Source: an uncultured Clostridia bacterium (GTDB lineage: Bacteria; Bacillota; Clostridia; Christensenellales; Aristaeellaceae). From it: a DNA stretch of 32,000 nt. The position numbers were made by a program, and so were the translations under genes. Under the pieces are notes generated by a model that had not been told where the DNA came from, searched no databases, and was given only the letters and a program-made list of their open reading frames with translations. Shown here in pieces: positions 1,193 through 28,374 of the stretch; positions within the stretch are counted from its first letter, which is position 1, and each line of letters opens with the position of its first letter. Location: contig CAKUFG010000022.1 in the NCBI GenBank assembly GCA_934647235.1, positions 1,138 through 33,137 of the forward strand, given 5' to 3'.

Positions 1193-1208
1193 TTTTGCGG
1201 GGATTTGG

Positions 1209-1365
1209 GAAGCCTTCCCCTTGAGGGGAAGGTGGCGAGTGAAACGAGCCGGATGAGGTGTAGCCGCCCAAGCGGCGTTTCTTTATCGCTTTGCTAACGG
1301 CTGCTACGCAGCCTACACCTCATCAGTCAGCTTTCGCTGACAGCTTCCCCTCCAAGGGGAAGCCT
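1209..1365. repeat. Two inverted copies of the modular hairpin repeat, forming a ~157-bp imperfect dyad in the grpE-dnaK spacer
   Basis: Forward unit: GCCTTCCCC-TTGA-GGGGAAGG, GGCGAGTGAAACGAGCC, GGATGAGGTGTAGCC, GCCGC-CCAA-GCGGC. Reverse unit: GGCTGC-TAC-GCAGCC, TACACCTCATC, GTCAGC-TTTC-GCTGAC, GCTTCCCC-TCCAA-GGGGAAGC. The same modules recur at 19039-19605, 22100-23052 and 25005-25061. Confidence 0.85.
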
Positions 1366-1369
1366 TGTC

Positions 1370-6455: not shown

Positions 6456-6538
6456 GACATTTCTCCTTTTATTTCATTGATGGATTTACGCTGATAGCTG
6501 CGGCGCAGCAGGTCTATCGCAGCAGCCGGTATCTCGGA

Positions 6539-8134: not shown

Positions 8135-8149
8135 ATATAGCTCCTTTCT

Positions 8150-8195
8150 TAAAAAGGCGGGAGGGCCATAAATTCATACAATTTATGGCCTTCCC
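8150..8195 (-). terminator. Intrinsic terminator or attenuator after the solute-binding protein gene
   Basis: Minus strand reads GGGAAGGCCATAAATTgtatgAATTTATGGCCCTCCC followed by GCCTTTTT. Located between the SBP stop (8227) and the GH35-like start (8134). Confidence 0.5.
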
Positions 8196-8226
8196 GCAGG
8201 GGTAAGCTGTGCTTTGGCGAGAAGGA

Positions 8227-9933: not shown

Positions 9934-9967
9934 GTGGGTCACTCCTTTTTTTATTTTCGAAAGAGCA

Positions 9968-10903: not shown

Positions 10904-10916
10904 GACTCTTATCTCC

Positions 10917-11843
10917 TTACATCAGAGAATTTCCGCGGATCATCTTGCTTGCCGTATTCGCCACCAGCAAAAGCGTTACGCTGACGATGGATTTAAGCAT
11001 ACCGATCGCCGTTGCCAGAGAGAAGTTTCTGCCTACCATGCCGATATTGTAAACGTACAGGTCCAGCACCTCGATGGTTTCCTTGTTCATGGCATTTTGG
11101 AAAACGAAATAGCTTTCCATGCCCGTGTTTATCAGGTTGCCGATGCTCAGCATCAGCAAAACAAAGAATGTCGGAAGCAGGCCCGGCACGGTAATGTGCC
11201 ACATCTGCTGATAGCGGTTCGCGCCGTCTACCTGGGCCGCTTCATACAGCTCCGTATCAATTCCCGCGATCGCTGCCAGGTACATAATAGCGCTCCAGCC
11301 CAACCCTTTCCACAGCTGCCACAGCGTCATCTTAAGCCAGATATGACTTGGATCCGCCAGGAAGTTGATGCCCTTGTCAATCCAGCCAAAGGATATCAGA
11401 ATGCGATTGACAAAGCCTGTATCTACAGAGAACAATGAGAAAGCAACGGAGTATACAAGCACCCAGCTGATGAAATTGGGCAATGTCGTCAGGATCTGTA
11501 CCGTCTTGCGATAACGCTTGGAACGAATCTCCGAAAGAAAGATTGCAAAGGCCACCGGGCAAACCGATGTGATCAAATGCAGGCCGCTCATTGCCAGAGT
11601 GTTGATCATTACCCGGATCACTTCTTTGGTTTGCGCGGGCGTATTGACCAGTCGCTTGAACCACTTGAAGCCTACGTATTCGCACCGGCTAAGCGGGAAA
11701 CCAGGGCGATAATTATAGAAAGCGTACCGCCACCCGGTAAGCGGAAGGTATGAAAAGATAAAAACCAACGCTAAAAATGGAAGCACCATCACCAGCAGCT
11801 TTACACTGTCCTTTCTGATGTGCAGCTTTCTTTTACTTCCCAT
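10917..11843 (-). CDS. Carbohydrate ABC transporter permease (LplB/YesP-like)
   Basis: 308-aa ORF, multi-TM, with EAA motif (YEAAQVDGANRYQQMWHITVP). Sits directly upstream of the second permease. Confidence 0.9.
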   Translation of the reverse strand: MGSKRKLHIRKDSVKLLVMVLPFLALVFIFSYLPLTGWRYAFYNYRPGFPLSRCEYVGFKWFKRLVNTPAQTKEVIRVMINTLAMSGLHLITSVCPVAFAIFLSEIRSKRYRKTVQILTTLPNFISWVLVYSVAFSLFSVDTGFVNRILISFGWIDKGINFLADPSHIWLKMTLWQLWKGLGWSAIMYLAAIAGIDTELYEAAQVDGANRYQQMWHITVPGLLPTFFVLLMLSIGNLINTGMESYFVFQNAMNKETIEVLDLYVYNIGMVGRNFSLATAIGMLKSIVSVTLLLVANTASKMIRGNSLM

Positions 11844-12017
11844 GTTGCAACGTTCCTTTCGCGCTTTTGCTTATTTGCTTTATCTGTCCTTTTTCCATTT
11901 TATTTTATACATCTTTTAATGCTGTAACAATGCAGGTTTTTTTGATTCGATTGTACATTCTTATGATCATCTCGGCCGTCTCCGCACAGCTCAAATGCCT
12001 GCAATGCCCAGTCCGCC

Positions 12018-13421
12018 TCAATTGGCAGGCGTTCCCTGCGCCAGGATTTCCCGCCGTTTCTCCGCGCCCTCGCGCCATTTCTGCGAGCGCCATCTATGCA
12101 GCAATATGAAGCCGCGCGTCAGCTCATCCAGTGCAAACGCCGTCCATACGCCGTACAGCCCCCATCCCAGGCAGATCGCCAGCAGGTACGAGCCGCCCAC
12201 GGATACCAGCCAGCCGCTGCCCTGGTTTACAATCAGCTGATAGGTAACATCCCCCGTAGCCTGCAAAGAGCCGGATATCGTGTTGTTCAGGGCACGGCCG
12301 ATTTCCACCACAAAATCAATCAGAAAAACGTTGGCGGCAATTTGAATAATCACGGGATCAGCCGTAAACAGGCGTATCAGCGGCATGCGGACGCAAATCA
12401 GCAAAAGCGAAAACAGCGCGTTGGTAATCAGCGCAATGCGCGTTACCAGGCTGCGGATTTGGTTTGCCTCTTCATAATTGCCAGCCCCCACTCGATATCC
12501 CACCATAATGGTGCTGGCCTGGCCAAACGCCATGCCCACCAGCGCAATATAATGCACAAGGTTGTTTACATACACCTTGGCCGCCACCATAGCGCCGCCC
12601 GAAAGGGCAACGACGGCGGTTGTCATCAGCTGGCTGAGCGAATACGCCAGATTGTTCAGCCCGCCCGGAATGCCGATGGACAGCGCCAGGCCAATCTCTT
12701 TTTTGGGGAACGGCTTGAGCAGCTTCAGCGATACCCTTAAGCTTGTGCGTGCAATAATTACGCAGGCGATTACCAATCCTCCCAGACGTCCGATCATGCT
12801 GGCAAGCGCAATGCCTGTAACCGGATCAATATTCAGGATTTCAGGATGATAAACCACCAGGTAATCGCCAATCAGATTGATCACATTAATTGTAAGGTTA
12901 ATCGCCAAAGGCGCCTTTACATGTCCCAGCGAGCGGCAAATACTGTTAAGCACAATCTCCACGCACGGAATCACCATAAGGCCGCCGCATATGCGCATAT
13001 ACCGAGCCGCCGCGTCTATGGAATAGCTGTCCAGCTTCATAATCGTCAGCAGGCCCTCTGAAAAGAAGAAAAAGATCAGGCCCATCACAAGGCCGAGCAC
13101 CAGGTTTGCCGCCAGCGCAATGGTGGCCAGGCGATTGATCTGCTGCTTGTTTTTCATGCCTACGGCCTGGTTAATGCACACAATAATGCCTGTAGAAACA
13201 GCGGAGGAGAGAATCAGGCACAGGTTGATATACTGGCCGGAAACGCTGACAGCGCTGACCACCTGATCGGAAACCCGGCTCATAAAAGCAACGTCCACCA
13301 GGTTAACGGTGGAGCGCAGCACATTTTCCAGCAGAATCGGCAGCGCCAGCTGCCCCAATCCAATGTTCTCCGGGCTTTGCTTTCTTTGTTCTTTTGAGGT
13401 CCAGAACAAGCCTTTTGTCAT
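12018..13421 (-). CDS. MATE family efflux transporter
   Basis: ORF trimmed to MTKGLFW (AAGGAG 7 nt upstream of the ATG at 13421). About 12 TM segments and a MatE-like N-terminus (LALPILLENVLRSTVNLVDVAFMSRVS). Confidence 0.85.
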   Translation of the reverse strand: MTKGLFWTSKEQRKQSPENIGLGQLALPILLENVLRSTVNLVDVAFMSRVSDQVVSAVSVSGQYINLCLILSSAVSTGIIVCINQAVGMKNKQQINRLATIALAANLVLGLVMGLIFFFFSEGLLTIMKLDSYSIDAAARYMRICGGLMVIPCVEIVLNSICRSLGHVKAPLAINLTINVINLIGDYLVVYHPEILNIDPVTGIALASMIGRLGGLVIACVIIARTSLRVSLKLLKPFPKKEIGLALSIGIPGGLNNLAYSLSQLMTTAVVALSGGAMVAAKVYVNNLVHYIALVGMAFGQASTIMVGYRVGAGNYEEANQIRSLVTRIALITNALFSLLLICVRMPLIRLFTADPVIIQIAANVFLIDFVVEIGRALNNTISGSLQATGDVTYQLIVNQGSGWLVSVGGSYLLAICLGWGLYGVWTAFALDELTRGFILLHRWRSQKWREGAEKRREILAQGTPAN

Positions 13422-13572
13422 AAAACGCTCCTTTCGCCACTCCGCCCAGAATTTACCAAAACGAAAAAGCCAGCGGATAGCATTGTATCTTTTTATACAT
13501 TCTACCACGCTGGCTTTCATTGATATATGCACGTATTTACGTTGTATGGTACACGCTTTTTCTATTTTTATC

Positions 13573-14910
13573 CTACGCCATCTCCTTTACCATCATCCGG
13601 AACGCACTCGGCGTCATATCCGTAATGCGCCGGAACATCTTGAAAAAGTAATGCGGCGTCTGATACCCTACGGCTTCTGCAATCTCATTAAAGCTCTTTT
13701 CTTCGTTGCCAAGCATCATATAGCAGGCCTTATCTATCCGCACCAGATTGATGTATTCTACAAACGTAACTCCCATTTCCCTATGGAACAGCGCAGAAAG
13801 ATAGCTGGGCGCAATATATACCTGCTGCGCCACATAAGAAAGGCTGATCTCCTCCTGATAGTGCTGGGAAATCACGTCCTTCGCCGCAAGTATTCCTTTT
13901 GAGGCCGGAACCGGCATACCCGCCAGCGCGTTCAGCCATTTCAGCCAGCAATCGTATGCCGCCCCTTCCCCCGCTTCGCAGAGCGCTTTCATCAATCCTA
14001 CCAGCTTCCAGGATTCCTGATGAATTTGAATCGCATCGCAAAAGCCGCCAATTTTTGAAAGGCTTTCCTGAAGCGGCTGGTTTTTTGTCATTTCATCCAG
14101 AATACAAGCCAGCTCCGTCCAGTCCTTCATTTGCCAGGCATTTATCGCCTTTCGCAAAGCCGCCTCCGTGCGATTCATCAAGGCGCTGTATGCCGCATGC
14201 AAATTCTCCAGCGCAGCCCGCGCCGGCTGAAAAGCCGTTATCTTCTGCTCTCTGAAATAAGCGGCGGCCGCGTCGGAAAAGCCCTCCATCTCCTGTTCCG
14301 GCACAACCATCAGGTCAAGGCAGTAATCGTTATGATCCCGTCCAAGCTCATAGCTGCGGGCATACAAATTCCGAGGGAACGACTTCAGCCATTCCCTGTC
14401 ATGCGAAACGATCACAGCACAGCCCTTTTCCCCTGCAAAAATATCGTCGTCCGTCATCGGATGAAGCAAATCATTAATCAGCACATTATACTGAATAATC
14501 AGACGCAGGCTTGTTATCTGCTTCTGCCTGCGTACAGCGGCTTCATCCTTTGTTTTTTGCATAACGCGCTCTACCAGGGCATAAAGCTGCTCTTTATCCA
14601 ACGGCTTGAGCAAATAATCCTGCGTCTGCAGCTTCAAGGCCTGATGGGCATACTCAAATTCATCATATCCAGTCAGCACGGCATAGTTTTCAGCGCCAAG
14701 CCCCCGAACCTTTTCTATCAGCTCCAGTCCCGTCATGCCCGGCATACGGATGTCCGTGATAAGCAGCTGCGGCCTTTCCTGTGCAAAGGCCTGCACCGCC
14801 TCCTGGGGATCATTGTATGTGATCACCTTCAGATCCGGCCAACGCCGCAGAAGAAAACGGGCTACACCGTTGCAGATAATGCTCTCGTCGTCAACAACCA
14901 TGATCTTCAT
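13573..14910 (-). CDS. Response regulator with receiver and AraC-type HTH domains (YesN-like)
   Basis: MKIMVVDDE...LLITDIRMPGMTGLE receiver domain. C-terminal AraC HTH (FNEIAEAVGYQTPHYFFKMFRRITDMTPSAFR). Its ATG overlaps the kinase stop (ATGA). Confidence 0.9.
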   Translation of the reverse strand: MKIMVVDDESIICNGVARFLLRRWPDLKVITYNDPQEAVQAFAQERPQLLITDIRMPGMTGLELIEKVRGLGAENYAVLTGYDEFEYAHQALKLQTQDYLLKPLDKEQLYALVERVMQKTKDEAAVRRQKQITSLRLIIQYNVLINDLLHPMTDDDIFAGEKGCAVIVSHDREWLKSFPRNLYARSYELGRDHNDYCLDLMVVPEQEMEGFSDAAAAYFREQKITAFQPARAALENLHAAYSALMNRTEAALRKAINAWQMKDWTELACILDEMTKNQPLQESLSKIGGFCDAIQIHQESWKLVGLMKALCEAGEGAAYDCWLKWLNALAGMPVPASKGILAAKDVISQHYQEEISLSYVAQQVYIAPSYLSALFHREMGVTFVEYINLVRIDKACYMMLGNEEKSFNEIAEAVGYQTPHYFFKMFRRITDMTPSAFRMMVKEMA

Positions 14911-16649
14911 GCCAATTTCTCCTTCTTATCTGCCTGGATGCGCACACGGCACAGCGTCCCCTCATCAGGGGTGCTGAACAGCTCTATCCCGGAATTCTCT
15001 CCAAAGAACATTTTCAAGCGCTTATGCACATTCATGATGCCAATACCGCCCTGCTCCTGGTTCAGCGGTTTGTCCGTCCCCAGCGACTGCTTGATCTCTG
15101 CCAGCCTGTCCGGCGAAATTCCAACGCCGTTATCCTGTACATCAATCAGCAGATAGTTCTCCTGCCTGTATATATGCACCTGGACATACCGGTTCCCCTT
15201 CGATCTGGAAATGCCGTGATGCACGCTGTTTTCTACCAAGGGCTGCAGAATAAATCTGGGGCATTTCATATTCGCAATATCCGCGTCGCAGATAATCTCA
15301 TAATCCAGATTAGAGTAACGCAGCTTGTTAAGCATCAGATAGTTCTTGATGTTTTCCAGCTCCCGCGTCAGCTCAATCTCCTGCTCCTTACCGCTGATGC
15401 AGCTGCGCATCAGCTTTCCGAGCACAAACAGCATATCAGCCACTTCGTTATCATCGTGCTCGTCAGCCATCATCCGCAGGGTTTCCAACGTATTATATAG
15501 AAAATGCGGCTGAATCTGCGCCTGCAGCGCGCTGAAACGCGCTGTCTGCTGCATAGCCTGCGCCATTCTTTCCTGCTCCGATATCTCCACCAATTGCTTC
15601 TGCAATTGATTATAGTTCCGTGCCAGGATGCCGATTTCATCCTCTCCGGCAATCTCAATCGGCCTCAGCGAGTCCAGCTGCTTTACCTGCGATTGCAGAC
15701 AGATCTGCTTGTTCAGCAGCTTAATGCGCTTTGTTACGCCCACATAATTCAAATATGCGGATATAAACATTGTTATCAGCAGCACTGCCACAATGTAGAT
15801 TAAGAAGCGGATAGAGCCCAGGATCATATGATAGGAGGGCTCAGCCGTTCCCGTCGCAACAAAAGCCAACCCTACTGCATCGCAGTAAATCGTGATTGCA
15901 TAATCCGAAAAGGAAAGCGCGTGGTAGCCCTCCGCATACATCTGCAGATTTTTCAGCTTATCCAGCTCCGCCTGGTCTGCGCTTGTAGAATAAAAAACAC
16001 CGTTGTCCTTGCTGCTCTTTATGATGCAGTCGCCGCCGATAATCTTGGCCATACTGTCCGTAATATCAGAAAAAATATACCTTGTCAGCTGCATTTCAAT
16101 CACGCCGACTGGCACAGCATCCTTATACACCGTTTGAATCCAGCTGGTATCGCTGCCATTTTCTCGTTCATTCGCGGTAAAATACCAGCCAGTATACTGC
16201 GCTGCAGACCAAAGCGGCAGCCTCTCTCTTGCTGCCGGACTGGCATATTCTGTTGCATATAGAACCGTGTTTCTCACCTTGCTGTGATTGGCGGATGCTC
16301 CCGTGATAAGTGCCTTTGCTTTATCGTAGTATTCATCGGCCTTCGTTTCGTCTGCCAGCGTCAGGAAAGCCGTCGTTTGCTGGCTGGATGCAATCACGTT
16401 TGAAATCGCCTTTATGCGCAGCATATCCGTCTCAAATGTATCTACTACATACCGGCAATACTGATAGCTTTTCTGCGCGCTTTGCTGCGCCAGGTTCAAA
16501 TACATCACGCTGGAGAACATAATTATGCATACCGCTAACGGAATAACCAGCAGCACAATTTGAACAATCAGGGTTTTGCTGGAAATACTGATATTCAGCC
16601 ATGAATCAATCAGGCTGAAATGCCGTTTTCCCTTTTCAGCGTTTGTCAT
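14907..16649 (-). CDS. Sensor histidine kinase (YesM-like: 2 TM, extracellular domain, HAMP, His_kinase, HATPase_c)
   Basis: ORF trimmed to MTNAEKG (AAGGAG 6 nt upstream). H-box QIQPHFLYNTLETL. ATPase motifs NSVHHG, VQDNGVGI, GGIGIMNV. Confidence 0.9.
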   Translation of the reverse strand: MTNAEKGKRHFSLIDSWLNISISSKTLIVQIVLLVIPLAVCIIMFSSVMYLNLAQQSAQKSYQYCRYVVDTFETDMLRIKAISNVIASSQQTTAFLTLADETKADEYYDKAKALITGASANHSKVRNTVLYATEYASPAARERLPLWSAAQYTGWYFTANERENGSDTSWIQTVYKDAVPVGVIEMQLTRYIFSDITDSMAKIIGGDCIIKSSKDNGVFYSTSADQAELDKLKNLQMYAEGYHALSFSDYAITIYCDAVGLAFVATGTAEPSYHMILGSIRFLIYIVAVLLITMFISAYLNYVGVTKRIKLLNKQICLQSQVKQLDSLRPIEIAGEDEIGILARNYNQLQKQLVEISEQERMAQAMQQTARFSALQAQIQPHFLYNTLETLRMMADEHDDNEVADMLFVLGKLMRSCISGKEQEIELTRELENIKNYLMLNKLRYSNLDYEIICDADIANMKCPRFILQPLVENSVHHGISRSKGNRYVQVHIYRQENYLLIDVQDNGVGISPDRLAEIKQSLGTDKPLNQEQGGIGIMNVHKRLKMFFGENSGIELFSTPDEGTLCRVRIQADKKEKLA

Positions 16650-16783
16650 ACACGTCTCCTTGCGAAAGAACAGCTGCTTCATATCAAAATGCTAATCCGG
16701 ATAACGCCTGTCAGCTTCCGCCGCACTGTATTATATCTTAGTTTATTTGCTCTGTCAAATCCGGTTGAATAGCGTCAGAATAA

Positions 16784-18925: not shown

Positions 18926-19038
18926 GCCCCCTTTCGTTTGTGGTTCATTTTATGCGGGGCGGAAGGTTAATATGATTGCAGGGAGAGTCTTTCGTTGGGC
19001 GCATTGGTGAAGCAGCGAGGCTTTGCAGCGCAATAACT

Positions 19039-19605
19039 GCACGACTATAAAAGCCTTCCCCCTGAAGGGAGCCGGAGTACCGCCCCTGCCTGTGGCAGAA
19101 TAGGGCGGGCGCAGGCTCAATGAGGCAACGAGTATTTGAGCAATATTTTGCTCAAATACGACTATGCCGAATTGCGGACAAGGTGTCGAGCCGCAGCGAG
19201 ACGGATGAGGGGGAACGTAACGGATTAATATTGCTTGCATTTCCGCGCAGCAGGCCCCCTCATCAGGCTCATTGCATTCGCCAGCTTCCCCCCTAGGGGA
19301 AGCCTTATTTGTGAGTGCTCTGACGCGGGTATCGCAGAGCGTTTGTTGACAAAAGCACGACTATAAAAGCCTTCCCCCAGATGGGGGAAGGTGTCGAGCC
19401 GCAGCGAGACGGATGAGGGGGAACGTAATGGATTAATATTGCTTGTATTTCCGCCAACAAGCCCCCTCATCAGGCTCATTGCATTCGCCAGCTTCCCCCC
19501 GAGGGGAAGCCTTATTTGCAAGCTTTCTGATATGGTTATCGCGGAACGCTCGCTGACAAGTGCACGACTATAAAAGCCTTCTCCCAGACGGGAGAAGGCT
19601 TTTAT
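19039..19605. repeat. Array of the modular hairpin repeat: ~207-bp tandem unit (19355-19561), an earlier copy carrying a ~109-nt insertion, ending in a terminator-like hairpin A
   Basis: GCACGACTATAAAAGCC recurs at 19039, 19355 and 19562. Inverted unit pairs lie at 19176-19304 and 19365-19511. GATGAGGGGG pairs with CCCCCTCATC. Lone hairpin aaaaGCCTTCTCCCagacGGGAGAAGGCtttt at 19572-19603. Confidence 0.85.
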
Positions 19606-19640
19606 ATGACAATCAGCAAAGCGCACTGCAGCAGCACGCC

Positions 19641-19697: not shown

Positions 19698-21482
19698 TCA
19701 GAACTCGATCTTCACGTAGATGTAGGCGGCGGCAGCACCAGCCAGTTCATCCGCGACGCTGATAGCCTTCTCGAATTCGTAGGCCTTTTCGGCAGTGATG
19801 TCCTTGGAGGGAGCTTCGTTCACGAAGGTCAGGAACGCTTCGGTGGGAACGGCGCTCAGCTCGTACTTAACAGTCACAGTGCCTTCCTTCACTTCGACAA
19901 CCAGCTTGCCAACCTTGGCGCCCTTAGCGTCAACCAGGTCCAGCTCAGTGATGGCGTCTTTGCTCAGGTCGATCTTAGCATAATCGGCAACTTCCTCGCC
20001 CTTTACGAAAGCGATGGTCTTGCCAGAGGTCTTGGTGGAGGTGGAGCCGGTAGCAGGAATGTACTTCTTGCCCAGCTGCACGCCGCACACGGTGCACTTC
20101 TGGATCTTCTTGCCTTCCTGGGTAGCGGAGGGCTTGCGAACCAGTTCCCATTCGCCGGGGGTATGGCCGGTGGCGGGGATCTTTTCGGTGGTGGTGCCTT
20201 CCTTAACAGCGCCGCACACAGAGCAAGCGATGCCCTTCAGGCCGTCTTCGGTGCAGGTAGCAGCCTTGATGACGGTAGCGGCAGCGGGGAACTTGTGCTC
20301 CTTGCTAGCCTTTACAGTGCGGGTCTTGCCGGTAGCGCCGCAGACCTTGCAGGTTTCGGTTTCTTCGTAATCTTCGCAGGGCTTGCCTTCCTTAACGGCC
20401 TTCCACTCGAAGTCATGATCCAGCTTTTCGAGGGTAACGGTCTTCAGGGTAGCGCCGCAGCGTTCGCAAACGGTGGTAGCAGTGCCTTCGGCAGTGCAAG
20501 TGGGTTCGACAACGGTGGTCTTTTCAACATGCGTCAGAGCATCATCGGTATTGGTCCAGCTCTCCAGCACTTCGCCGCAGCGGGTGCACTTGAAGCCGCC
20601 AACACTGCCCTTGCCGCAAGCAGCAGGAGTCAGAATTTCGGCCTTGGAAGACTTCTTGTGGCCAAGAGCAGCGATTTCCTTGGTTTCGGTATAATCGCAG
20701 CGCTCGCACTTGGCAGTCTTGGAGCCCTTCTCAGTGCAGGTAGCCTCGGTAACAGTGGTCCAAGTCAGGTTGTGACCCAGCTTGGAGCCTTCAGTCTTTT
20801 CAACCTTCTGCTTGCACACAGAGCAAACCTGGTATACGACCTTAGCCTTTTCGCAGGTAGCTTCGCTCACAATGTACTTATCGCCAGTAAGAGTGTGTTT
20901 GCCAGTGGCCTTGATGGGCTGACGGGAGCCTTCCTTTTCGTGGTTGCAGCCAGGAGTGGTGCAAACCAGGGTGGTGTAACCATCTTCGCCGCAGGTAGGC
21001 TGCTTGGTGTACTTGGCATATTCATGGTTGCCAGTAGCAGGAATAGTTTCCTTGGTCAAGATCGCGCTGCACACAGAGCAACGAGTCTTAACAACATAGC
21101 CGTCCTTATAGCAGGAAGCAGGAACATTGTTCTGAGTATAGCTAGGATCAGCCGCTACAGGAGTATGCTTGCCGGTGGTGGCGATGATCTTTTCTTCCTT
21201 GTCGCCGCACACAGTGCACACGCGCTCTTCCTTGCCCTGATCCTTGCAGGTGGCCTTATCTACTTCTACCCAAGCGCCCCAGGTATGAGCCTTCTTGGCG
21301 ATGGGTTCTTCATAAGAAGTGCCACACTTAGAGCAGGTGTAGGTTACTTTGCCTTCAACCTTGCAGGTAGAATGGATTTCAACCTTGGTCCAATTGTGGT
21401 CGCAGGTTTCAGCGGCCAGACAGGGGATCGCGATCGCGATCAACAGAGCCGCAACCACGAGTACGCGAAGAATTTTCTTCAT
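19698..21482 (-). CDS. Secreted protein with 11 tandem ~36-47-aa His/Cys3 mini-repeats plus a ~110-aa C-terminal domain; function unknown
   Basis: ORF trimmed to MKKILRVLVVAALLIAIAIPCLAAE (signal peptide; RBS GGGAGG). Repeats follow H-x(8-16)-C-x(7-9)-C-x2-C(G), for example HTWGAWVEVDKATCKDQGKEERVCTVCG. Codon usage is AAG/GAA/ACC/GCT/GTT rich. Confidence 0.8.
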   Translation of the reverse strand: MKKILRVLVVAALLIAIAIPCLAAETCDHNWTKVEIHSTCKVEGKVTYTCSKCGTSYEEPIAKKAHTWGAWVEVDKATCKDQGKEERVCTVCGDKEEKIIATTGKHTPVAADPSYTQNNVPASCYKDGYVVKTRCSVCSAILTKETIPATGNHEYAKYTKQPTCGEDGYTTLVCTTPGCNHEKEGSRQPIKATGKHTLTGDKYIVSEATCEKAKVVYQVCSVCKQKVEKTEGSKLGHNLTWTTVTEATCTEKGSKTAKCERCDYTETKEIAALGHKKSSKAEILTPAACGKGSVGGFKCTRCGEVLESWTNTDDALTHVEKTTVVEPTCTAEGTATTVCERCGATLKTVTLEKLDHDFEWKAVKEGKPCEDYEETETCKVCGATGKTRTVKASKEHKFPAAATVIKAATCTEDGLKGIACSVCGAVKEGTTTEKIPATGHTPGEWELVRKPSATQEGKKIQKCTVCGVQLGKKYIPATGSTSTKTSGKTIAFVKGEEVADYAKIDLSKDAITELDLVDAKGAKVGKLVVEVKEGTVTVKYELSAVPTEAFLTFVNEAPSKDITAEKAYEFEKAISVADELAGAAAAYIYVKIEF

Positions 21483-21704
21483 GTTCGATTTTCCTCCCAA
21501 TAAATTTTGCTTGGTTATTTATATAACAGCCGCTGCCGACTGTTATAGCAATTTCCGCGCCGGCCTCAGAGCGGGAATCGCAGCATGACCCGCAGCAAGC
21601 GTAGCACGCCGCGGCACTTTATCATGTAAACTGCCCTCCTTTCCCGCGCACGCATTGGGGGCACGAATTACGCACCCGGTACTGCGCATGAGACCGTTTA
21701 CCAT

Positions 21705-21978: not shown

Positions 21979-22054
21979 GGGGCATTAGCGCAGCTGGTAG
22001 CGCACAACACTGGCAGTGTTGGGGTCAGGAGTTCGAATCTCCTATGCTCCACCA
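21979..22054 (+). tRNA. tRNA-Ala (anticodon GGC), CCA encoded
   Basis: Manual cloverleaf: acceptor GGGGCAT/ATGCTCC with the G3:U70 Ala identity pair, D arm GCGC-AGCTGGTA-GCGC, anticodon arm CAACA-CTGGCAG-TGTTG, T arm AGGAG-TTCGAAT-CTCCT, then ACCA. 76 nt in total. Confidence 0.9.
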
Positions 22055-22058
22055 ATAG

Positions 22059-22087
22059 AAACCGGATGCTTGGCATCCGGTTTTTTT
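22059..22087 (+). terminator. Intrinsic terminator after tRNA-Ala
   Basis: ACCGGATGC-ttg-GCATCCGGT followed by TTTTTTT. Confidence 0.75.
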
Positions 22088-22099
22088 GTTGTGCGGTTG

Positions 22100-23052
22100 G
22101 GGGATGAGGGGGGACGAGGGTACGCCGCTGCGGCGTTACCTTTTAGTTTGTCGTGATAACGGCTACTTCGTAGCCTACACCTCATCCGGCTGGCATCGAG
22201 AGAACGCCGCTGCGGCGGCTACACCTCATCCGGCTCATTGCATTCGCCACCTTCTCCTCAAGGAGAAGGCTTTGGGTTGGCCGTGCTGGCCAGCATATGC
22301 AGGGTGCTGCGTTTGCCCCTCATCCGTCTCGCTGCGGCTCGACACCTTCTCCCAGACGGGAGAAGGCTTTCATGGTCGTGCTGTTGTTGAGTTTAGAAAG
22401 TACATTGCCGCATTGACGCAATCGCCAAAAGGCTTCCCCTTGAGGGGAGGCTCCGCCGTAGGCGGTGGTGAGGTGTAGGCTACGAAGTAGCCGTTATCAT
22501 AACTATTAATAAAAGATAACGCCGCTGCGGCGGCTACACCTCATCCGCTTCACTGCGTTCAGCACCTTCTCCTCAAGGAGAAGGCTTTGGGTTGGCCGCA
22601 TTTTCCAGCATACGCATATCAATGCGTTCCCCCTCATCCGTCTCGCTGCGGCTCGACACCTTCTCCCGAGGGAGAAGGCTTTCATGGTCGTGCTGTTGTT
22701 GAGTTTAGAAAGTACATTGCCGCATTGACGCAATCGCCAAAAGGCTTCCCCTTGAGGGGAGGCTCCGCCGTAGGCGGTGGTGAGGTGTAGGCTACGAAGT
22801 AGCCGTTATCATAACTATTAATAAAAGATAACGCCGCTGCGGCGGCTACACCTCATCCGCTTCACTGCGTTCAGCACCTTCTCCTCAAGGAGAAGGCTTT
22901 TGGAGGAGGATCCTTGCCAGCATACGTGAAACGCTGCGTTCCCCCTCATCCGTCTCGCTGCGGCTCGACACCTTCTCCCGAGGGAGAAGGCTTTTATAGT
23001 TATGCGGTTGGCAAGCGAGGAAAGCCTTCTCCCAGACGGGAGAAGGCTTTCC
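22100..23052. repeat. ~950-bp array of the modular hairpin repeat: macro-units at 22203-22517 (315 bp), 22518-22829 (312 bp) and 22830-~22998 (partial), plus flanking partial units and a terminal hairpin A
   Basis: AACGCCGCTGCGGCGGCTACACCTCATCC recurs at 22203, 22518 and 22830. A 56-nt block catggtcgtgctgttgttgagtttagaaagtacattgccgcattgacgcaatcgcc is identical at 22371 and 22683. There are 9-10 hairpin-A modules in both orientations. Confidence 0.9.
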
Positions 23053-23080
23053 TAATATATCATCCATATCGTCCCAGCGC

Positions 23081-23849: not shown

Positions 23850-24782
23850 ATGAACACCCTGCATTTCAAGTATGCCGTGGAGGTAGAGCGCTGCGGCTCC
23901 ATCACCCAGGCCGCCGAAAACCTCTATATGGCCCAGCCGAACCTGAGCAAATCCATCAAGGAGCTGGAGGACACCCTCGGCTTCCAGATTTTTGCCCGCA
24001 CGGCGCGGGGCGTGGTGCCCACTGCGCGCGGGCGCGAGTTTCTGGTTTACGCGCGCGGCATTCTCAATCAGCTGCAGGCCATGGAGGCCCTGTCCCAGCG
24101 GCACGACGACGCGACCCAGCGCTTCAGCCTGTCCATGCCCCGCGCCGGATATATCGCCGATTGCTTCTCCGCCCTGGTGGACAGCCTGGATAAGGGCAGC
24201 CCCATGGATATCCGCGTGCGCGAGGCCAGCGCCCTGCATACCATCAACGACGTTGCCGACGGCCAGTTCCAGCTGGGCATTTTCCGCACAGAGCTGAAGG
24301 ATGCGGGCTATTATCTGAACTATCTGCGCGAAAAATCGCTGCAGTACGAGCCTGTGTGGGAGTATGACGCCCTGCTGCTGCTGTCGCAGGAGCATCCGCT
24401 GGCCGCGCGCGACCGCATCGAGCCGGAGGACCTGGCCCCCTATACGCAGATCATCTATGGCGATCTGGCCGTCCCGTATCTGCCTGCGTCGGACACCCTG
24501 CGCCCGCAGGATCCCCTTGCCGGCCGCATCCAGGTGTATGGCCGGCTGGAGCAGCTGGATCTGCTCAGCCGTCTGCCCGATACCTATATGTGGGCCTCGC
24601 CCGAAGCCCCCGCCGCCCTGCGCCGCTTCTCGCTGGTTATGCGCAAGTGCTTCAATGCCTCCATCCGCTATCAGGATATCCTCGTCTACCCCTCCGCCTA
24701 TCAGCTTTCCGCGCTGGACCGCCGCTTCGTCTCGCTCCTTTCCAGCGCCCGCACGCGCCTGTCGCACCAGACGTATACCTGA
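23850..24782 (+). CDS. LysR family transcriptional regulator
   Basis: 310-aa ORF with an N-terminal LysR HTH (LHFKYAVEVERCGSITQAAENLYMAQPNLSKSIKELEDTLGFQIFARTARGVVPT). RBS AAGGAGAGG present. Divergent from the TRIC gene. Confidence 0.9.
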   Translation: MNTLHFKYAVEVERCGSITQAAENLYMAQPNLSKSIKELEDTLGFQIFARTARGVVPTARGREFLVYARGILNQLQAMEALSQRHDDATQRFSLSMPRAGYIADCFSALVDSLDKGSPMDIRVREASALHTINDVADGQFQLGIFRTELKDAGYYLNYLREKSLQYEPVWEYDALLLLSQEHPLAARDRIEPEDLAPYTQIIYGDLAVPYLPASDTLRPQDPLAGRIQVYGRLEQLDLLSRLPDTYMWASPEAPAALRRFSLVMRKCFNASIRYQDILVYPSAYQLSALDRRFVSLLSSARTRLSHQTYT

Positions 24783-24862
24783 GGCGCGGCAAGAAGGCTT
24801 TATTATTTGAGTTTTGAAAGACGCTTGGCCGTTCTATAGATACGAGTGACAAATGCAGCCAG

Positions 24863-24987
24863 CCCCGTGGCACGCCGATGGAATCGGCGCGGGCTGGCGA
24901 AGCCAGGCCAAGGGGGAAAAAGCGAAAGGCTGACTGGGCGAAGCTTGCTTCAGACCAGGCAGCACAAGGTTTTCACCTGCCACGGGG
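24863..24987 (+). repeat. 125-nt structured element bounded by 10-bp terminal inverted repeats, copy 1 (candidate ncRNA or MITE-like element)
   Basis: CCCCGTGGCA...TGCCACGGGG closes the element. Internal hairpins are CGCCGAT-GGA-ATCGGCG, CTGGC-GAA-GCCAG, GAAGC-TTG-CTTC(A) and GCTGACTGG/CCAGGCAGC. Strand is guessed from G.T pairs. Confidence 0.6.
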
Positions 24988-25004
24988 AATGCTATCCGGC
25001 AGAA

Positions 25005-25061
25005 CCCCTCATCCGTCTCGCTGTTCGCTCGACACCTTCTCCCGCTTGGGAGAAGGCTTTT
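25005..25061. repeat. Single reverse-oriented unit of the modular hairpin repeat, lying between the two 125-nt elements
   Basis: CCCCTCATCC, then GTCTCGCTGTTCGCTCGAC, then CCTTCTCCC-gctt-GGGAGAAGG, then CTTTTATAGTTATGCG. Confidence 0.8.
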
Positions 25062-25143
25062 ATAGTTATGCGCTATGCAAGAAACTTGGCTGTTCTGCCC
25101 AACTACCGCAGTCAGCCATGCCTGATTTTCGCACCCAATCACG

Positions 25144-25268
25144 CCCCGTGGCACGCTGATCGCAGATCAGCGCAGGGCGTGCGCAGCACGACCATAGGGG
25201 AAAAATGAAAAGTTGCCTGGGGGAGCTTGCTCCTAACCAGGCAACTTAAGTTTTTCCCTGCCACGGGG
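25144..25268 (+). repeat. 125-nt structured element bounded by 10-bp terminal inverted repeats, copy 2
   Basis: Same termini and same length as copy 1. Hairpins are CGCTGATC-GCA-GATCAGCG, CGTGC-GCA-GCACG, GGAGC-TTG-CTCC and AGTTGCCTGG/CCAGGCAACT. The helices differ from copy 1 by paired changes. Confidence 0.6.
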
Positions 25269-25372
25269 CACAAAACGGCAGTGCCGCCTTCCAGTTTTAT
25301 TCAATTGCCTTTCACGTCACACGCAGCCTTCTTTGATTCTTTCTTGGGCTCCAAGAAAGAATCGTACCCCTT

Positions 25373-26032
25373 CTACCGCTTCTCCACCACGCTGCCGCCC
25401 TTGTGGATGCAGTTGGCGGGGACGGTGCCGCGAACGCTGACCAGGGGGTATACCTGCGCGCCGCGGCCAATGACGGTGCCGGGATTGAGCACCGCGCCGC
25501 AGCCGATCTCGGCGTAATCGCCCAGCATCGCGCCCAGCTTTTTGAGGCCGGTCTCCATACGCTCGCTGCCGCCATGCACCACCACCGGCTGGCGATCGCC
25601 CTTGACATTGCTGGTAACAGCGCCCGCGCCCATGTGCGCGCGGTAGCCCAGCACGCTGTCGCCCACATAGTTGTAGTGCGGAACCTGCACGTTGTCAAAG
25701 AGGATCACGTTTTTCAGCTCCGTGCTGTTGCCCACCACCGCGTCGCGGCCAATGAGCGCGCTGCCGCGGATATAGGCGCAGTGGCGCACCTCCGCGCCAT
25801 GATCGATGATGACGCACTCGCCCAGGCACGCCGTGGGCGCAACCACCGCGTCGCGCGCAATCCATACCGTGGGCGAAGGATGCAAGAATTCGCTGATGGG
25901 CAGCGTTTCGCCCAGCGCCAGAATAAAAGGCCTGATGCGCGGCAGCACCTCGTGCGGATACTCGCACTTTTCCAATAGCTCCGCCGCGCGCGTATGCGTT
26001 AAATCAAACAGATCGCTTACCCTGTACAGCAT
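25373..26032 (-). CDS. Left-handed beta-helix (hexapeptide repeat) acyltransferase, resembling the GlmU C-terminal domain, standalone
   Basis: 219-aa ORF with hexapeptide repeats (IIDHGAEVRHCAYIRGSALIGRDAVVGNSTELKNVILFDNVQVPHYNYVGDSVLG...). Its RBS GGAGGA lies inside the glmM 3' end, so the two are translationally linked. Confidence 0.7.
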   Translation of the reverse strand: MLYRVSDLFDLTHTRAAELLEKCEYPHEVLPRIRPFILALGETLPISEFLHPSPTVWIARDAVVAPTACLGECVIIDHGAEVRHCAYIRGSALIGRDAVVGNSTELKNVILFDNVQVPHYNYVGDSVLGYRAHMGAGAVTSNVKGDRQPVVVHGGSERMETGLKKLGAMLGDYAEIGCGAVLNPGTVIGRGAQVYPLVSVRGTVPANCIHKGGSVVEKR

Positions 26033-26036
26033 CGCA

Positions 26037-27386
26037 TTATTCCTCCATCGCCATGCCGCTGCCGCGCAGCGCCGCCGCCACGCTGTCCGCCGCGCGCTGC
26101 GCCATATCGCCGTCCTCGGCCTCGCACATCACGCGCAGCACGGGCTCAGTGCCGCTCTTGCGCAGCAGAATGCGTCCCTGCGTGCCCAGCCCGGCGCGCG
26201 CGGCTTCCAGCGCCGCCGCTACCTGCGGATGCGCGGCCGCCGCTGCCTTGTCCGCCACGCGCACGTTGATCAGCACCTGCGGGTAGCTGACCATGCCCGC
26301 ATGCAGCTCGGACAGCGGGCGCTTTTGCGCCAGCATGGCCTGCATCACCTTGATGGCCGTCAGCAGGCCGTCGCCGGTGGTGGCGTACTTGGCAAAGATG
26401 ATATGCCCGCTCTGCTCGCCGCCCAGCGGATCGCCGCGCTGCTGAATGCGCTCGTATACATATTTATCGCCCACATCGGTCTGCTCGTAGCCGATGCCCA
26501 GCGCGTCCAGCGCGCGGTACAGGCCCATATTGCTCATGATAGTGGTCACCACATGCCCCGCGCCCAGCAGCCCCTGCTTTTGCAGGAAGGCGGCGTACAG
26601 ATACAGGATGCGGTCGCCATCCACCGCCTGGCCGCGCTCGTCCACAGCGATGCAGCGATCCGCGTCGCCGTCAAAGGCAAAGCCCACGTCCAGCCCCTGC
26701 CCGATCACCAGGCGCTGCAGGTTTTCAATGTGCGTGGAGCCGCAGTTCACGTTGATGTTTTCGCCGTTGGGCGTATTGCCCACCACCGTCACCTCGGCGC
26801 CCAGGGCCTTGAACACGCTCTCGGCCAGCTGCCAGGTGGAACCGTTGGCGCAGTCCAGGCCCACGCGCAGGCCCTTATAGGAGTGCGTAGCCAGCGAGAT
26901 CAGGTAGCCGATATAGCGATTGCGCCCGGCGGCGTGATCCACCACGCGGCCGATGCGCTCGCGCGTGGCCAGCGGCGCGGACGCGCCCGCGTCCAGAAAC
27001 GCCTCGGCGCGCTCGATCACCGCGTCCTCCATCTTTTCGCCCTGGGCGTTGACAAGCTTGAGCCCGTTATCCCAATAGGGGTTATGGCTGGCGCTGATCA
27101 TCACGCCGCAGTCAAAGCCCTCGGTGCGGGCCACATAGGACACGCTGGGCGTGGGGGTGACGTGCAGCAGGTAAGCGTCCGCGCCGGCGGAGGTAAGCCC
27201 TGCGCACAGCGCGTCTTCCAGCATATAGCCGGAGGCGCGGGTATCCTTGCCGATGACCACGCGGGCGCGGCGCGCCTGGCTGCCATAAAAGGAGCCTAAA
27301 AACTGCCCCAGCTGGAAGGCGTGCATGGCGGTAAGCTCGCGGTTGGCTTCGCCGCGGAAGCCGTCGGTGCCAAAGTATTTGCCCAT
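26037..27386 (-). CDS. glmM: Phosphoglucosamine mutase GlmM
   Basis: ORF trimmed to MGKYFGTDGFRGEAN (GGAGG 5 nt upstream). Active-site loop GVMISASHNP and Mg site FAFDGDADR. Confidence 0.95.
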   Translation of the reverse strand: MGKYFGTDGFRGEANRELTAMHAFQLGQFLGSFYGSQARRARVVIGKDTRASGYMLEDALCAGLTSAGADAYLLHVTPTPSVSYVARTEGFDCGVMISASHNPYWDNGLKLVNAQGEKMEDAVIERAEAFLDAGASAPLATRERIGRVVDHAAGRNRYIGYLISLATHSYKGLRVGLDCANGSTWQLAESVFKALGAEVTVVGNTPNGENINVNCGSTHIENLQRLVIGQGLDVGFAFDGDADRCIAVDERGQAVDGDRILYLYAAFLQKQGLLGAGHVVTTIMSNMGLYRALDALGIGYEQTDVGDKYVYERIQQRGDPLGGEQSGHIIFAKYATTGDGLLTAIKVMQAMLAQKRPLSELHAGMVSYPQVLINVRVADKAAAAAHPQVAAALEAARAGLGTQGRILLRKSGTEPVLRVMCEAEDGDMAQRAADSVAAALRGSGMAMEE

Positions 27387-27414
27387 TCTGTCCTCCTTTT
27401 TCATCACGCAAAAG

Positions 27415-27454
27415 TAAAAAATGGCCGCTAAAAGGCTTTTGTTCTTTTAGCGGC
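27415..27454 (-). terminator. Intrinsic terminator between nagB and glmM
   Basis: Minus strand reads GCCGCTAAAAG-aacaaaagc-CTTTTAGCGGC followed by CATTTTTTAC. Confidence 0.6.
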
Positions 27455-27473
27455 AAGGCTTTTAACGGTTGAA

Positions 27474-28193
27474 TTATAGCATGGACGCGGCGTCATCGTC
27501 AATATAGACGGTGCAGTCGGGATGCAGCTGCAGGATGGAGGCGGGCACGCTGTTATCAATGCGGCCCTCGATCATGCCCTTGACGGCCTGGGCCTTGTTC
27601 TTGCCAAAGGCCATCAGGATGATCCTGCGGGACTGCATCACGGTCTTGATGCCCATGGACACGGCCTTTTCGGGTACCTCGTCAATGGAATTGAAGAAGC
27701 GCTTATTGGCCTGGCGGGTTGCGTCGGTCAGGGGCACGATGTGCGTGACGGCATCCCAGGGCGTGCCGGGCTCGTTAAAGCCGATATGGCCGTTGGGGCC
27801 GATGCCCAGCAGCTGCAGATCCACGCCGCCGGCCTGCTTGATTTCATCGTCGTAGCGCGCCGCCATCTCGTCCGTCACGCCAATGCCGCAGGGCACGTGC
27901 GTGCGGGTCTTGTCGATATCCACCAGGTTGAACAGGTGGCTATCCATGAAGTAGCGGTAGCTCTGGGGATGGGAGCCGTCCAAGCCCACATACTCGTCCA
28001 GGTTATAGGTGGTGACATCCTTGAAGGAGAGCTTGCCCGCCCTGCACAGGGCAACCAGCTCTTCATACAGCATCTCGGGCGTGGAGCCGGTGGCCAGGCC
28101 AAGGACGCAGTGCGGATTTTCACCCAGCAGCCTGCGGTATTCCTCCGCCGCCATGCGCGCGCAATTGCGCTGGGTATCCCGGATAATTTTCAT
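27474..28193 (-). CDS. nagB: Glucosamine-6-phosphate deaminase NagB
   Basis: ORF trimmed to MKIIRD (GAGGTG 6 nt upstream). Motifs LGLATGSTP, NLDEYVGL and LLGIGPNGHIGFNEPG are characteristic. Confidence 0.9.
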   Translation of the reverse strand: MKIIRDTQRNCARMAAEEYRRLLGENPHCVLGLATGSTPEMLYEELVALCRAGKLSFKDVTTYNLDEYVGLDGSHPQSYRYFMDSHLFNLVDIDKTRTHVPCGIGVTDEMAARYDDEIKQAGGVDLQLLGIGPNGHIGFNEPGTPWDAVTHIVPLTDATRQANKRFFNSIDEVPEKAVSMGIKTVMQSRRIILMAFGKNKAQAVKGMIEGRIDNSVPASILQLHPDCTVYIDDDAASML

Positions 28194-28243
28194 GCTTAAC
28201 ACCTCTATCGTATGCTGCCGCGCAGCAAATTATGACCGTTCTC

Positions 28244-28272
28244 ATGGTAAGCAATTTAGTGCGAAATGTCAA
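28244..28272 (-). promoter_or_regulatory. Putative SigA promoter of nagB
   Basis: Minus strand reads TTGACA, 17 nt, then TACCAT, about 50 nt upstream of the nagB ATG. Confidence 0.4.
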
Positions 28273-28374
28273 GTCCTTTTCGCCCCCTGGCGCACGGCGC
28301 CCCCCCGTGCCGTCCGGCTTTTGCCCGGATATTACATAATTATGCAAAAAGCAGCAAAAAAACATCCTGCTTTA

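Follow-up and report, generated by a model that had tools for sequence, protein, structure and literature searches.

Paired 125-nt four-way-junction elements of an uncultured Clostridia contig as probable cassettes of an interspersed, nested-palindromic mosaic repeat family

Mosaic palindromic repeats are known from the intergenic DNA of several bacterial groups, i.e., the BIMEs built from REP (PU) units and the REPINs of Enterobacteria and Pseudomonas, the NIMEs of Neisseria and the BOX elements of Streptococcus pneumoniae. Transcription termination and mRNA 3′-end protection have been proposed as roles of REP/BIME and BOX elements. Here, we analyze two copies of a 125-nt structured element in 32,000 nt of DNA from an uncultured Clostridia bacterium (contig CAKUFG010000022.1 of assembly GCA_934647235.1, positions 1,138 to 33,137; this whole stretch is called the window, and our coordinates count from its first letter). 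We propose, at a probability of about 0.6, that these elements are cassettes ("cores") of lineage-specific, interspersed, nested-palindromic mosaic repeats that occupy intergenic regions of uncultured human-gut Clostridiales/Oscillospiraceae and are maintained at the DNA level. The core is probably not a stand-alone RNA gene. The repeat family is best read as a new representative of the BIME/NIME/BOX/REPIN kind of mosaic palindromic repeats: no description of it was found in Rfam or in the searchable literature, where queries by topic and by terminal sequences returned nothing relevant. It matches this descriptive class in having many intergenic copies made of a limited set of modules that vary in number, order and orientation.

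Both core copies lie on the + strand, at 24863-24987 and 25144-25268; each is 125 nt long, and their starts are offset by 281 nt. The same 10-bp termini, CCCCGTGGCA/TGCCACGGGG, close both copies, and CCCCGTGGCA or its complement occurs in the whole window at just these four ends. A check of the sequence agrees on position, length and termini with an earlier, sequence-only reading of the same DNA, which had described two + strand copies closed by inverted 10-mers. Each copy folds as a four-way junction with a 10-bp closing stem (P1), two short hairpins (P2 and P3) and a long interrupted hairpin (P4). The fold of copy 1 reaches -64.9 kcal/mol (z = -5.0) and that of copy 2 -77.4 kcal/mol (z = -9.1); shuffled sequences did as well in 0/200 trials for each. 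In copy 1, typed as P2a/P3a/P4a and scoring 110.8 bits with our covariance model, P1 pairs 24863-24872 with 24978-24987, and P2, P3 and P4 span 24873-24889, 24891-24909 and 24913-24977. In copy 2 (P2b/P3b/P4b, 138.2 bits), P1 pairs 25144-25153 with 25259-25268 and can be extended by G25143-C25269, with P2 at 25154-25172, P3 at 25175-25193 and P4 at 25197-25258.

A full-length alignment of the two copies was obtained, and it displays the helix differences that had been listed before. The P2 stem of copy 1, CGCCGAT/ATCGGCG, is replaced in copy 2 by CGCTGATC/GATCAGCG; for P3, CTGGC/GCCAG in copy 1 stands against CGTGC/GCACG in copy 2, with a G.G or G.A mismatch at the equivalent position. The tip helix around the CUUG loop is GAAG/CUUC vs. 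GGAG/CUCC, the long stem is found in both copies with a single A.G mismatch in copy 1, and the base of P4 pairs as GGGGAAA/TTTYCCC. Every one of these quoted helices was recovered in folds that go beyond the shuffled controls. The earlier failure to match the element to a known RNA family also stands, as an Rfam covariance search of the window gave nothing for it: at gathering score, Rfam release 15 returned a tRNA as the single match in the whole window, and with permissive filters the best matches within 24700-25400 had E > 2, far under gathering scores. Protein-coding open reading frames (ORFs) running across the copies were dismissed, because copy lengths (119-127 nt) do not change in steps of three and the changes obey base pairing.

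Further copies had been suggested as something to look for, and the search revealed a dispersed multi-copy family that occupies at least 71 sites and keeps its helices. A first scan, with both termini as the pattern and one genome per bacterial species, matched 48 stretches, of which about 23 were clearly the same element, on both strands and all in two metagenome-assembled genomes (MAGs), SFIM01 ("Clostridiales bacterium W1P21.023") and SFLS01 ("Oscillospiraceae bacterium W2P20.011"). A covariance model built from 25 copies located 35 cores in 15 loci of these two MAGs. A more specific termini pattern then matched 91 stretches of metagenome contigs, in which the model gave 122 matches; the contigs whose names describe the sample are all human-gut assemblies. 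In total, we handled 148 cores, of which 145 (118 distinct) entered the alignment (A3), and clustering by context resolved them into the 71 sites. Core length ranges from 119 to 127 nt. The window itself shares 96.7% DNA identity with a contig of SFIM01 over 1,077 nt, which places it in the species of that MAG or in a very near one. All copies are intergenic, and about 30 flanking genes that we checked are housekeeping genes, including dnaN, tpiA, fusA, plsX, glgC/D and rsgA. Copies found by the model alone show P1 variants that still pair, CCGCAGGGCA/TGCCCTGCGG at L008:1196 and CCCCGCGGCA/TGCCGCGGGG at L023:3895 (L numbers are loci of our collection). The termini pattern had no match in viral contigs, and neither had the full unit described below in a BLAST search of plasmid and phage collections.

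The Phycisphaerales matches of the first scan were rejected as family members, since they belong to an unrelated repeat with only the 10-nt termini in common. This multi-copy Planctomycetota repeat, 116-139 nt long, has the same 10-nt ends within terminal inverted repeats of about 27 nt (CCCCGTGGCAYGGGCGTCCCGCCCRTG or CCCCGTGGCACGGGTTTGCAACCCGTG) and a variable centre, and it looks like a miniature inverted-repeat transposable element (MITE). We saw it at L001, L003, L006, L009, L012, L016, L017, L028, L036 and L046, of the Phycisphaerales MAG MFD09671.bin.2.105, and further at L005, L013, L022, L032 and L041.

The sequence-only reading had held that pairing is preserved while primary sequence diverges, and over the 118 distinct cores this is what we find. 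Standard pairs fill 97.9% of the pair cells, vs. 40-50% in controls with slid partners, 14 of the 38 pairs change on both sides, and 0/500 column shuffles reached the observed pairing values. Most of this variation comes in blocks. P2 has three main forms, P3 two and P4 about six; of the 36 combinations that these allow, the majority was observed, and the P2/P3/P4 hairpin cassettes reassort among copies almost freely. Single compensated substitutions occur too, e.g., GTTGCC../..GGCAAC vs. GCTGCC../..GGCAGC. Compensated variation is found equally in every other hairpin of the mosaic, plain terminator-like ones included, and covariation therefore does not single out a functional RNA here. The earlier interpretation of preserved pairing as the mark of a structured RNA or of a hairpin-dependent mobile element has to be divided: the pairing changes are mostly whole-cassette swaps and are not RNA-specific, and for the mobile alternative, possible but doubtful, no direct evidence of transposition was found.

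The two strands of the core are not equivalent. On the + strand, the P3 loop is GNA in 107 of the 118 cores, the P2 loop is mostly GCA or another GNA, and P4 ends in a G(CTTG)C tip in 95 cores, with TTTA in 21 others. Of 113 copies, 92 (RNA parameters) or 109 (DNA parameters) also fold more stably as the + strand than as the - strand, bearing in mind that the copies are related and do not amount to 113 independent observations; the preference for the + strand in the sequence-only reading is borne out to this extent. Its more particular claim, that G.T pairs in the P4-base stem are tolerated only on the + strand, survives in part. Sporadic helix mismatches comprise 28 G.T and 29 A.C, and since the two are equally common, wobble pairs say little about the strand. 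The G.T pairs are indeed gathered at two P4-base positions, where an alignment with a bulged G is equally good.

The element had also been presented as self-contained, and this did not hold. Alignments and BLAST coverage show that conservation among copies extends beyond the core into the flanks, over about 140 nt on the upstream side and about 130 nt on the downstream side. The core is thus one cassette of a unit of about 390 nt, which has the order T1 terminator-like hairpin, leader, core, hairpin A, conserved linker, hairpin T and C-rich short repeats, and which itself builds palindromic mosaics of 0.7-1.3 kb. T1 is kept at the 5′ end of most units, with compensatory variants.

In the window, the copy pair occupies a 590-nt spacer that separates two convergent genes, a LysR-family regulator (23850..24782, +; Pfam HTH_1 and LysR_substrate), which is the upstream neighbour and reads into copy 1, and a hexapeptide-repeat transferase (25373..26032, -; Pfam). 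The unit of copy 1 is truncated, consisting of half a T1 tail, a variant leader and the core, with its 3′ module missing. Its 5′ module (24791..24862, +) begins with the right half of the T1 hairpin tail (AAGAAGGCTTTAT) and continues with leader variant B; other copies cover it in BLAST from 24792, and leader variant B recurs at L007:208, L021:98 and L023:3895. The unit around copy 2 is complete and takes in, between the two copies, a junction module with CCCCTCATCCGTCTCGCTGTTCGCTCGACA (24988..25034, +), the usual 5′ extension of the T1 hairpin as judged from its recurrence at other loci; its reverse complement adjoins the second core in L160, L161 and L163, and it is repeated inside the window at about 22318-22345, 22632-22657 and 22944-22969. 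T1 follows (25035..25063, +), a CCTTCTCCC-GCTT-GGGAGAAGG hairpin and then CTTTTAT, which by terminator scan (hairpin 25035-25056) and fold resembles an intrinsic terminator for + transcripts carrying LysR plus copy 1. The flank GAAGGCTTT(T)AT that had been noticed upstream of both copies is real: for copy 2, it is the tail of this complete hairpin at 25035-25056, and for copy 1, it is the right half of such a hairpin alone.

Leader variant A (25064..25143, +; ...CTTGGCTGTTCTGCCCAACTACCGCAGTCAGCCATGCCTGATTTTCGCACCCAATCACG), conserved upstream of most cores, joins T1 to copy 2. The first part of the 3′ module (25269..25328, +) holds hairpin A (GGCAGTGCC, 25275-25285), TTCCAGTTTTATTCAA and the linker ending ...TTTCACGTCACACGCAGCCTTCTTTG, as seen in a 3′-flank alignment of 31 copies and in the coverage by 32-34 copies; the conserved linker runs TTCCAGTTTTATTCAA...ACGTCACAC...TTCTTTG, up to 25328. 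Hairpin T (GATTCTTTCTTGG-GCT-CCAAGAAAGAATC; 25329..25357, +), found by folding and conserved with compensatory variants, is the outermost hairpin of the unit. Flank alignment and coverage then delimit a C-rich tail (25358..25395, +), which is akin to the (Y)TCGTCCCC short repeats at which the mosaics end and overlaps the stop codon of the hexapeptide-transferase gene (25373-25375). In some units, the loop of hairpin T carries a structured insert of about 100 nt (TACGCCCCGCGCTACTGCCTTACGGCAAGCGCGGGTTTCGGGCGGCAATTTGCAAAATTGCGCGCCCTCAGCCGCCTGCGGCGGCGCTATGG), observed at L002:7150-7330, L007:1820-2000, L008:790-920, L021:223-400, L034:1690-1860, and L065:3860-4000 and 7530-7630. This suggests that hairpin loops are favoured places to nest further modules.

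Cores are often paired. Taking as paired any site with two cores less than 700 nt apart, there are 19 distinct paired sites, and 18 of them have the arrangement (-)(+), i.e., head-to-head with the 5′ sides facing, across spacers of 106-587 nt. Neither tail-to-tail (+)(-) nor (-)(-) pairs occur (0/19 each), and the sole (+)(+) pair is that of the window. The centre of a doublet is a symmetrical T1, CCAAAAGGCTTCTCC...GGAGAAGCCTTTTGG, which looks like a bidirectional intrinsic terminator. At the outer ends, (GGGGACGAR)n stands on one side and (YTCGTCCCC)n on the other, so that the whole is an imperfect palindrome of 0.7-1.3 kb. An alternative layout was seen at L065:7480-7930, where a lone core lies between two inverted 3′ modules of about 125 nt. 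We rejected an origin of the doublets by foldback duplication: the two arms carry different cassettes and, therefore, are not recent copies of each other.

Variation between strains is considerable: one and the same site can differ in swapped cassettes, gained modules, tandem duplications and deletions from the centre. Contigs with an identical variant of the hexapeptide transferase (P0123) all have the proximal core but not the same cassettes; a spacer of 157, 404-416, 530 or 722 nt, made of extra hairpin modules, leads to the second core, and in two of these contigs the neighbouring genes are different. We compared all loci against each other in search of clean insertions, with flanks 97-99% identical in the examples given here. 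The 798-nt doublet of L004 corresponds in L127 to one chimeric hairpin T between the G-rich and C-rich repeats, a deletion between the two palindromic T hairpins. The doublet of L008 corresponds to a lone 3′ module in L082. Another stretch of L082, at 1303-1469, is a 167-nt hybrid that scores as a core on both strands and that, relative to the doublet in L008:6845-7276 and in L087, has lost 259 nt; it exemplifies the central deletion of a long palindrome, here between two inverted cores. No clean insertion or empty site was found among the family loci compared, only recombinational deletions and module insertions or deletions.

The (+)(+) layout of the window is best explained as a rearrangement with a breakpoint at the inner P1 end of copy 1. 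The alignment of the window with L065 has 95% identity and is confined to 24978-28280, and its ends coincide with repeat elements, though the window itself has no element at 28280. To the left of 24978, the place of copy 1 and LysR in the window is taken in L065 by a (-) core of another type and an rlmL-like gene; to the right of 28280, the window has an SBP_bac_3 ABC-transporter gene, where L065 has an element and a gene for 1158 aa. Copy 1 and the L065 core are about 72% similar in either orientation. An inversion of the core between its termini was considered and rejected, because copy 1 is a different variant rather than the inverse of the relatives' core and its outer flank differs as well; no flipped core was seen in any of 82 flank-matched copy pairs (0/82). 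The search for an empty site through LysR orthologues was also abandoned: downstream of LysR, the relatives carry other genes and no element, and a true empty site could not be defined.

We hypothesize the following mechanism for a repeat maintained at the DNA level. Single-stranded DNA, exposed in replication or repair, would fold into the hairpins of the family; hairpin-templated repair (template switching), together with gene conversion among copies, would keep the arms complementary and would thereby yield "compensatory" double changes with no need for an RNA function. Long palindromes would be shortened by central deletion, and recombination between copies may rearrange the chromosome. 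Transcription entering a block from its neighbours would produce very stable structures in 3′ untranslated regions, with T1 acting as an intrinsic terminator, bidirectional in doublets, and the cell would probably gain terminators or insulators and a shield for mRNA 3′ ends. For the window, we expect that the LysR transcript passes through copy 1 in the sense orientation and ends at T1 (25035-25063); most transcription of copy 2 would come from the hexapeptide-transferase gene and be antisense.

Alternatively, the core or the doublet could be mobile but non-autonomous, a hairpin-dependent element of the REPIN/RAYT or IS200/IS605 PATE type, whose folded + strand is recognized by a single-strand-specific (HUH-type) transposase with its gene elsewhere in the genome and is copied or moved between intergenic sites. 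The numerous dispersed intergenic copies, the strict head-to-head doublets (as in REPINs), the strand-asymmetric folding, with one strand bearing the GNA triloops that characterize very stable DNA mini-hairpins, and the survival of P1 pairing through the sequence changes noted above would all fit, as would about 25 kb of sequence from relatives (80-83% DNA identity at the LysR locus, or more distant) that has neither core nor module. However, no direct sign of transposition was found. No direct repeat flanks the core in 32 copies, judged at the core edges (the composite outer ends are variable short repeats), which answers in the negative the earlier suggestion to look for target-site duplications at the element ends, and no conserved target adjoins it either. 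Recombination between repeated modules accounts for all the presence/absence differences found, and a clean insertion for none; about 30 neighbouring genes include no transposase, and the 493 proteins predicted from the family loci (about 0.7 Mb) include none that stands out as multi-copy. The core, about five times as long as a REP, has no GTAG motif, and single copies mostly have their + strand opposite to the genes, probably not the lagging-strand template that IS200/IS605 elements favour. We regard mobility of this kind as a possible but doubtful explanation. That the core is a structured RNA seems to us quite improbable, whether as a family of many sibling small-RNA genes (leader, core, hairpin A plus U-run) or as a cis-acting module with a functional four-way junction. 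Such an RNA would account for strongly conserved, covarying helices, for a + strand with a G(CUUG)C tetraloop and GNA triloops that is the stabler one as RNA in most copies, and for a unit bracketed by the terminator-like T1 upstream and by hairpin A and then TTCCAGTTTTATT downstream. Yet all other mosaic hairpins covary alike, whole cassettes are swapped, G.U is not favoured over A.C except at the P4 base, and Rfam offers no match. A scan of 24600-25500 found no promoter-like sites of the sigma-70 type, the aligned leaders show no conserved -10-like box, and one copy per 16-20 kb or so would be unprecedented for a small-RNA family. Core orientation relative to neighbouring genes is mixed and more often antisense; the gene on the 3′ side of single copies is convergent in 29 of 35 cases, and read-through would therefore usually give the core in antisense.

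The inverted termini invite two further comparisons. The first is a site-specific recombination cassette, in which a recombinase acting at the 10-bp termini would flip the core or trade it for another, in the way of an invertible switch or of an integron attC-like site. It is true that the window has the only (+)(+) pair, that the closest relatives have there a core of opposite orientation with the same inner junction sequence, and that the cassettes at a single site vary between strains. Against this, the flipped cores that inversion would leave are missing from the flank-matched pairs, copy 1 is another variant with another outer flank, the termini do not fit the attC R''/R' consensus and no integrase or invertase gene lies nearby, so that we consider such a cassette very improbable. 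A retron msr-msd region has a superficially similar layout, with 10-bp inverted ends that could be a1/a2, two short hairpins that could be msr and one long hairpin that could be msd. This reading, to which we give next to no chance, is in practice already refuted by the missing gene: no reverse transcriptase adjoins any copy examined, the neighbours in the window being LysR, hexapeptide transferase and GlmM. At least 71 sites per lineage, in both orientations, and a core embedded in larger palindromes are likewise not what a retron would show.

Several points weigh against repeats maintained purely at the DNA level. The spread to at least 71 sites is unexplained, as no transposase, target-site duplication or clean empty site was found. 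The special stable loops (GNA, GNA and G(CUUG)C) are on the + strand only and that strand folds systematically better, an asymmetry that a purely double-stranded, recombination-only model does not predict and that suggests that a single-stranded + form, DNA or RNA, matters. The collection has limits of its own: both scans demanded exact P1 termini, which biases the host range and the apparent invariance of P1; the copies are linked by descent and conversion, and our counts are not counts of independent events; and, for the orientation test, genes were called with a simple heuristic based on G+C content at third codon positions (GC3). Because P1 is maintained, the GNA/GNA/G(CTTG)C loops are one-stranded and that same strand folds better, the four-way-junction core might itself be a functional single-stranded structure, i.e., (i) the substrate of a junction- or hairpin-specific transposase or recombinase; or (ii) a set of about 100 structured RNAs cut from read-through transcripts. 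We think this unlikely; if its junction-specific-enzyme version were true, the family would represent a new class of REPIN-like mobile elements in Firmicutes, one that shuffles its cassettes. Size, branched core, combinatorial cassettes and density are unusual, and nothing that we found requires a new mechanism.

If mosaic repeats maintained at the DNA level are the right reading, a prevalent uncultured species of human-gut Clostridiales has a previously undescribed family of nested palindromic repeats. These would occupy a large share of its intergenic space, vary between close strains and coincide with breaks in gene order, and they likely shape transcription termination and genome rearrangement in the lineage. 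Mosaic blocks of this kind would fragment or mis-join metagenome assemblies and could be used as strain markers. There would also be a lesson of method: DNA palindromes in many copies can covary in a way easily mistaken for that of a structured RNA.

The mosaic is not limited to the copy pair. BLAST to mosaic regions of other loci identified three core-less blocks in the window, and together with 24791-25395 they take up about 2.3 kb of its 32 kb. A block of about 160 nt with nested hairpins (1208..1366) lies between grpE (1370-1954, -) and dnaK (3-1120, -) in the hrcA-grpE-dnaK heat-shock operon, with genes assigned by Pfam; T-runs are absent from its hairpins on the transcribed strand. The block at 19035..19606 contains a 207-nt unit in two tandem copies, and adjoining it, at 19698-21500 (-), is a 600-aa ORF with coding-like GC3 and no significant Pfam domain. 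The third block (22087..23060) comes after tRNA-Ala (21979-22054), which has its own terminator; it opens with G-rich repeats (GGGGGATGAGGGGGGACGAGGG), holds a 312-nt unit 2.5 times and has at least nine terminator-like CCTTCTCC..GGAGAAGG hairpins within 1 kb. Beyond the hexapeptide transferase lies a GlmM-like gene (26037-27407, -; Pfam). The region 4227-16682 has a lower G+C content (0.48-0.55, vs. about 0.60-0.67 elsewhere), and every gene in it is on the - strand; the products include GH31 and GH35/42-like glycosidases, an ABC sugar permease, a MatE pump and an AraC-type response regulator with its histidine kinase, and it is probably an acquired carbohydrate-utilisation cluster. The ORFs at 8227-9942 and 9968-10903 have no Pfam match.

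Among described repeats, BIMEs/REPINs, NIMEs and the pneumococcal BOX are closest in behaviour, and the family belongs to none of them by sequence or defining features. Like BIMEs, REPs and REPINs, it consists of strictly intergenic, high-copy palindromic units in inverted-orientation mosaics with other short motifs; the inverted doublet is a recurrent unit (18/19 paired sites here), the repeats are hot spots of rearrangement, and the proposed roles in termination and 3′-end protection are shared. Unlike the REP hairpin of about 20-40 nt, the core is a 125-nt four-way junction within a unit of about 390 nt; it is branched, 119-127 nt long over the family, bounded by CCCCGTGGCA and devoid of the GTAG motif. 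No RAYT (Y1 transposase) was identified among the genes examined on host-genome fragments, in contrast to REPIN-RAYT systems, and the host belongs to the Gram-positive-type Clostridiales. With NIMEs (RS units and dRS3 inverted repeats), the family has in common variable units between a short conserved inverted repeat, here CCCCGTGGCA/TGCCACGGGG, as well as intergenic arrays tied to recombination and gene-order change; it differs in showing no sequence similarity, no dRS3 and no phage or IS110-type integration into its repeats, and in having highly structured hairpin cassettes as internal units.

BOX (boxA-boxB(n)-boxC) is likewise a modular intergenic repeat of the Firmicutes type with a variable number of internal modules, its terminal modules pair into a very stable fold, its means of mobilisation is unknown and effects on neighbour expression are suspected; the present family, on the other hand, has nested palindromes, head-to-head doublets and blocks of up to 1.3 kb, with no sequence similarity and no boxA/B/C. 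MITEs such as Correia of Neisseria, ERIC/IRU of Enterobacteria and RUP of pneumococcus resemble it in size (about 100-400 nt), terminal inverted repeats, intergenic location, frequent co-transcription and the ability to carry terminators; unlike them, it has no target-site duplication at the core and no related insertion sequence was found, and its polymorphisms are recombinational, not insertional. Retrons, with an adjacent reverse transcriptase and one or a few loci per genome, are set apart from a family that has no such neighbour gene and at least 71 sites. Finally, integron attC sites (R''/R': RYYYAAC ... GTTRRRY) come with cassette ORFs and intI, whereas here the termini are CCCCGTGGCA/TGCCACGGGG, no integrase is nearby and the spacers are made of hairpin modules instead of ORFs.

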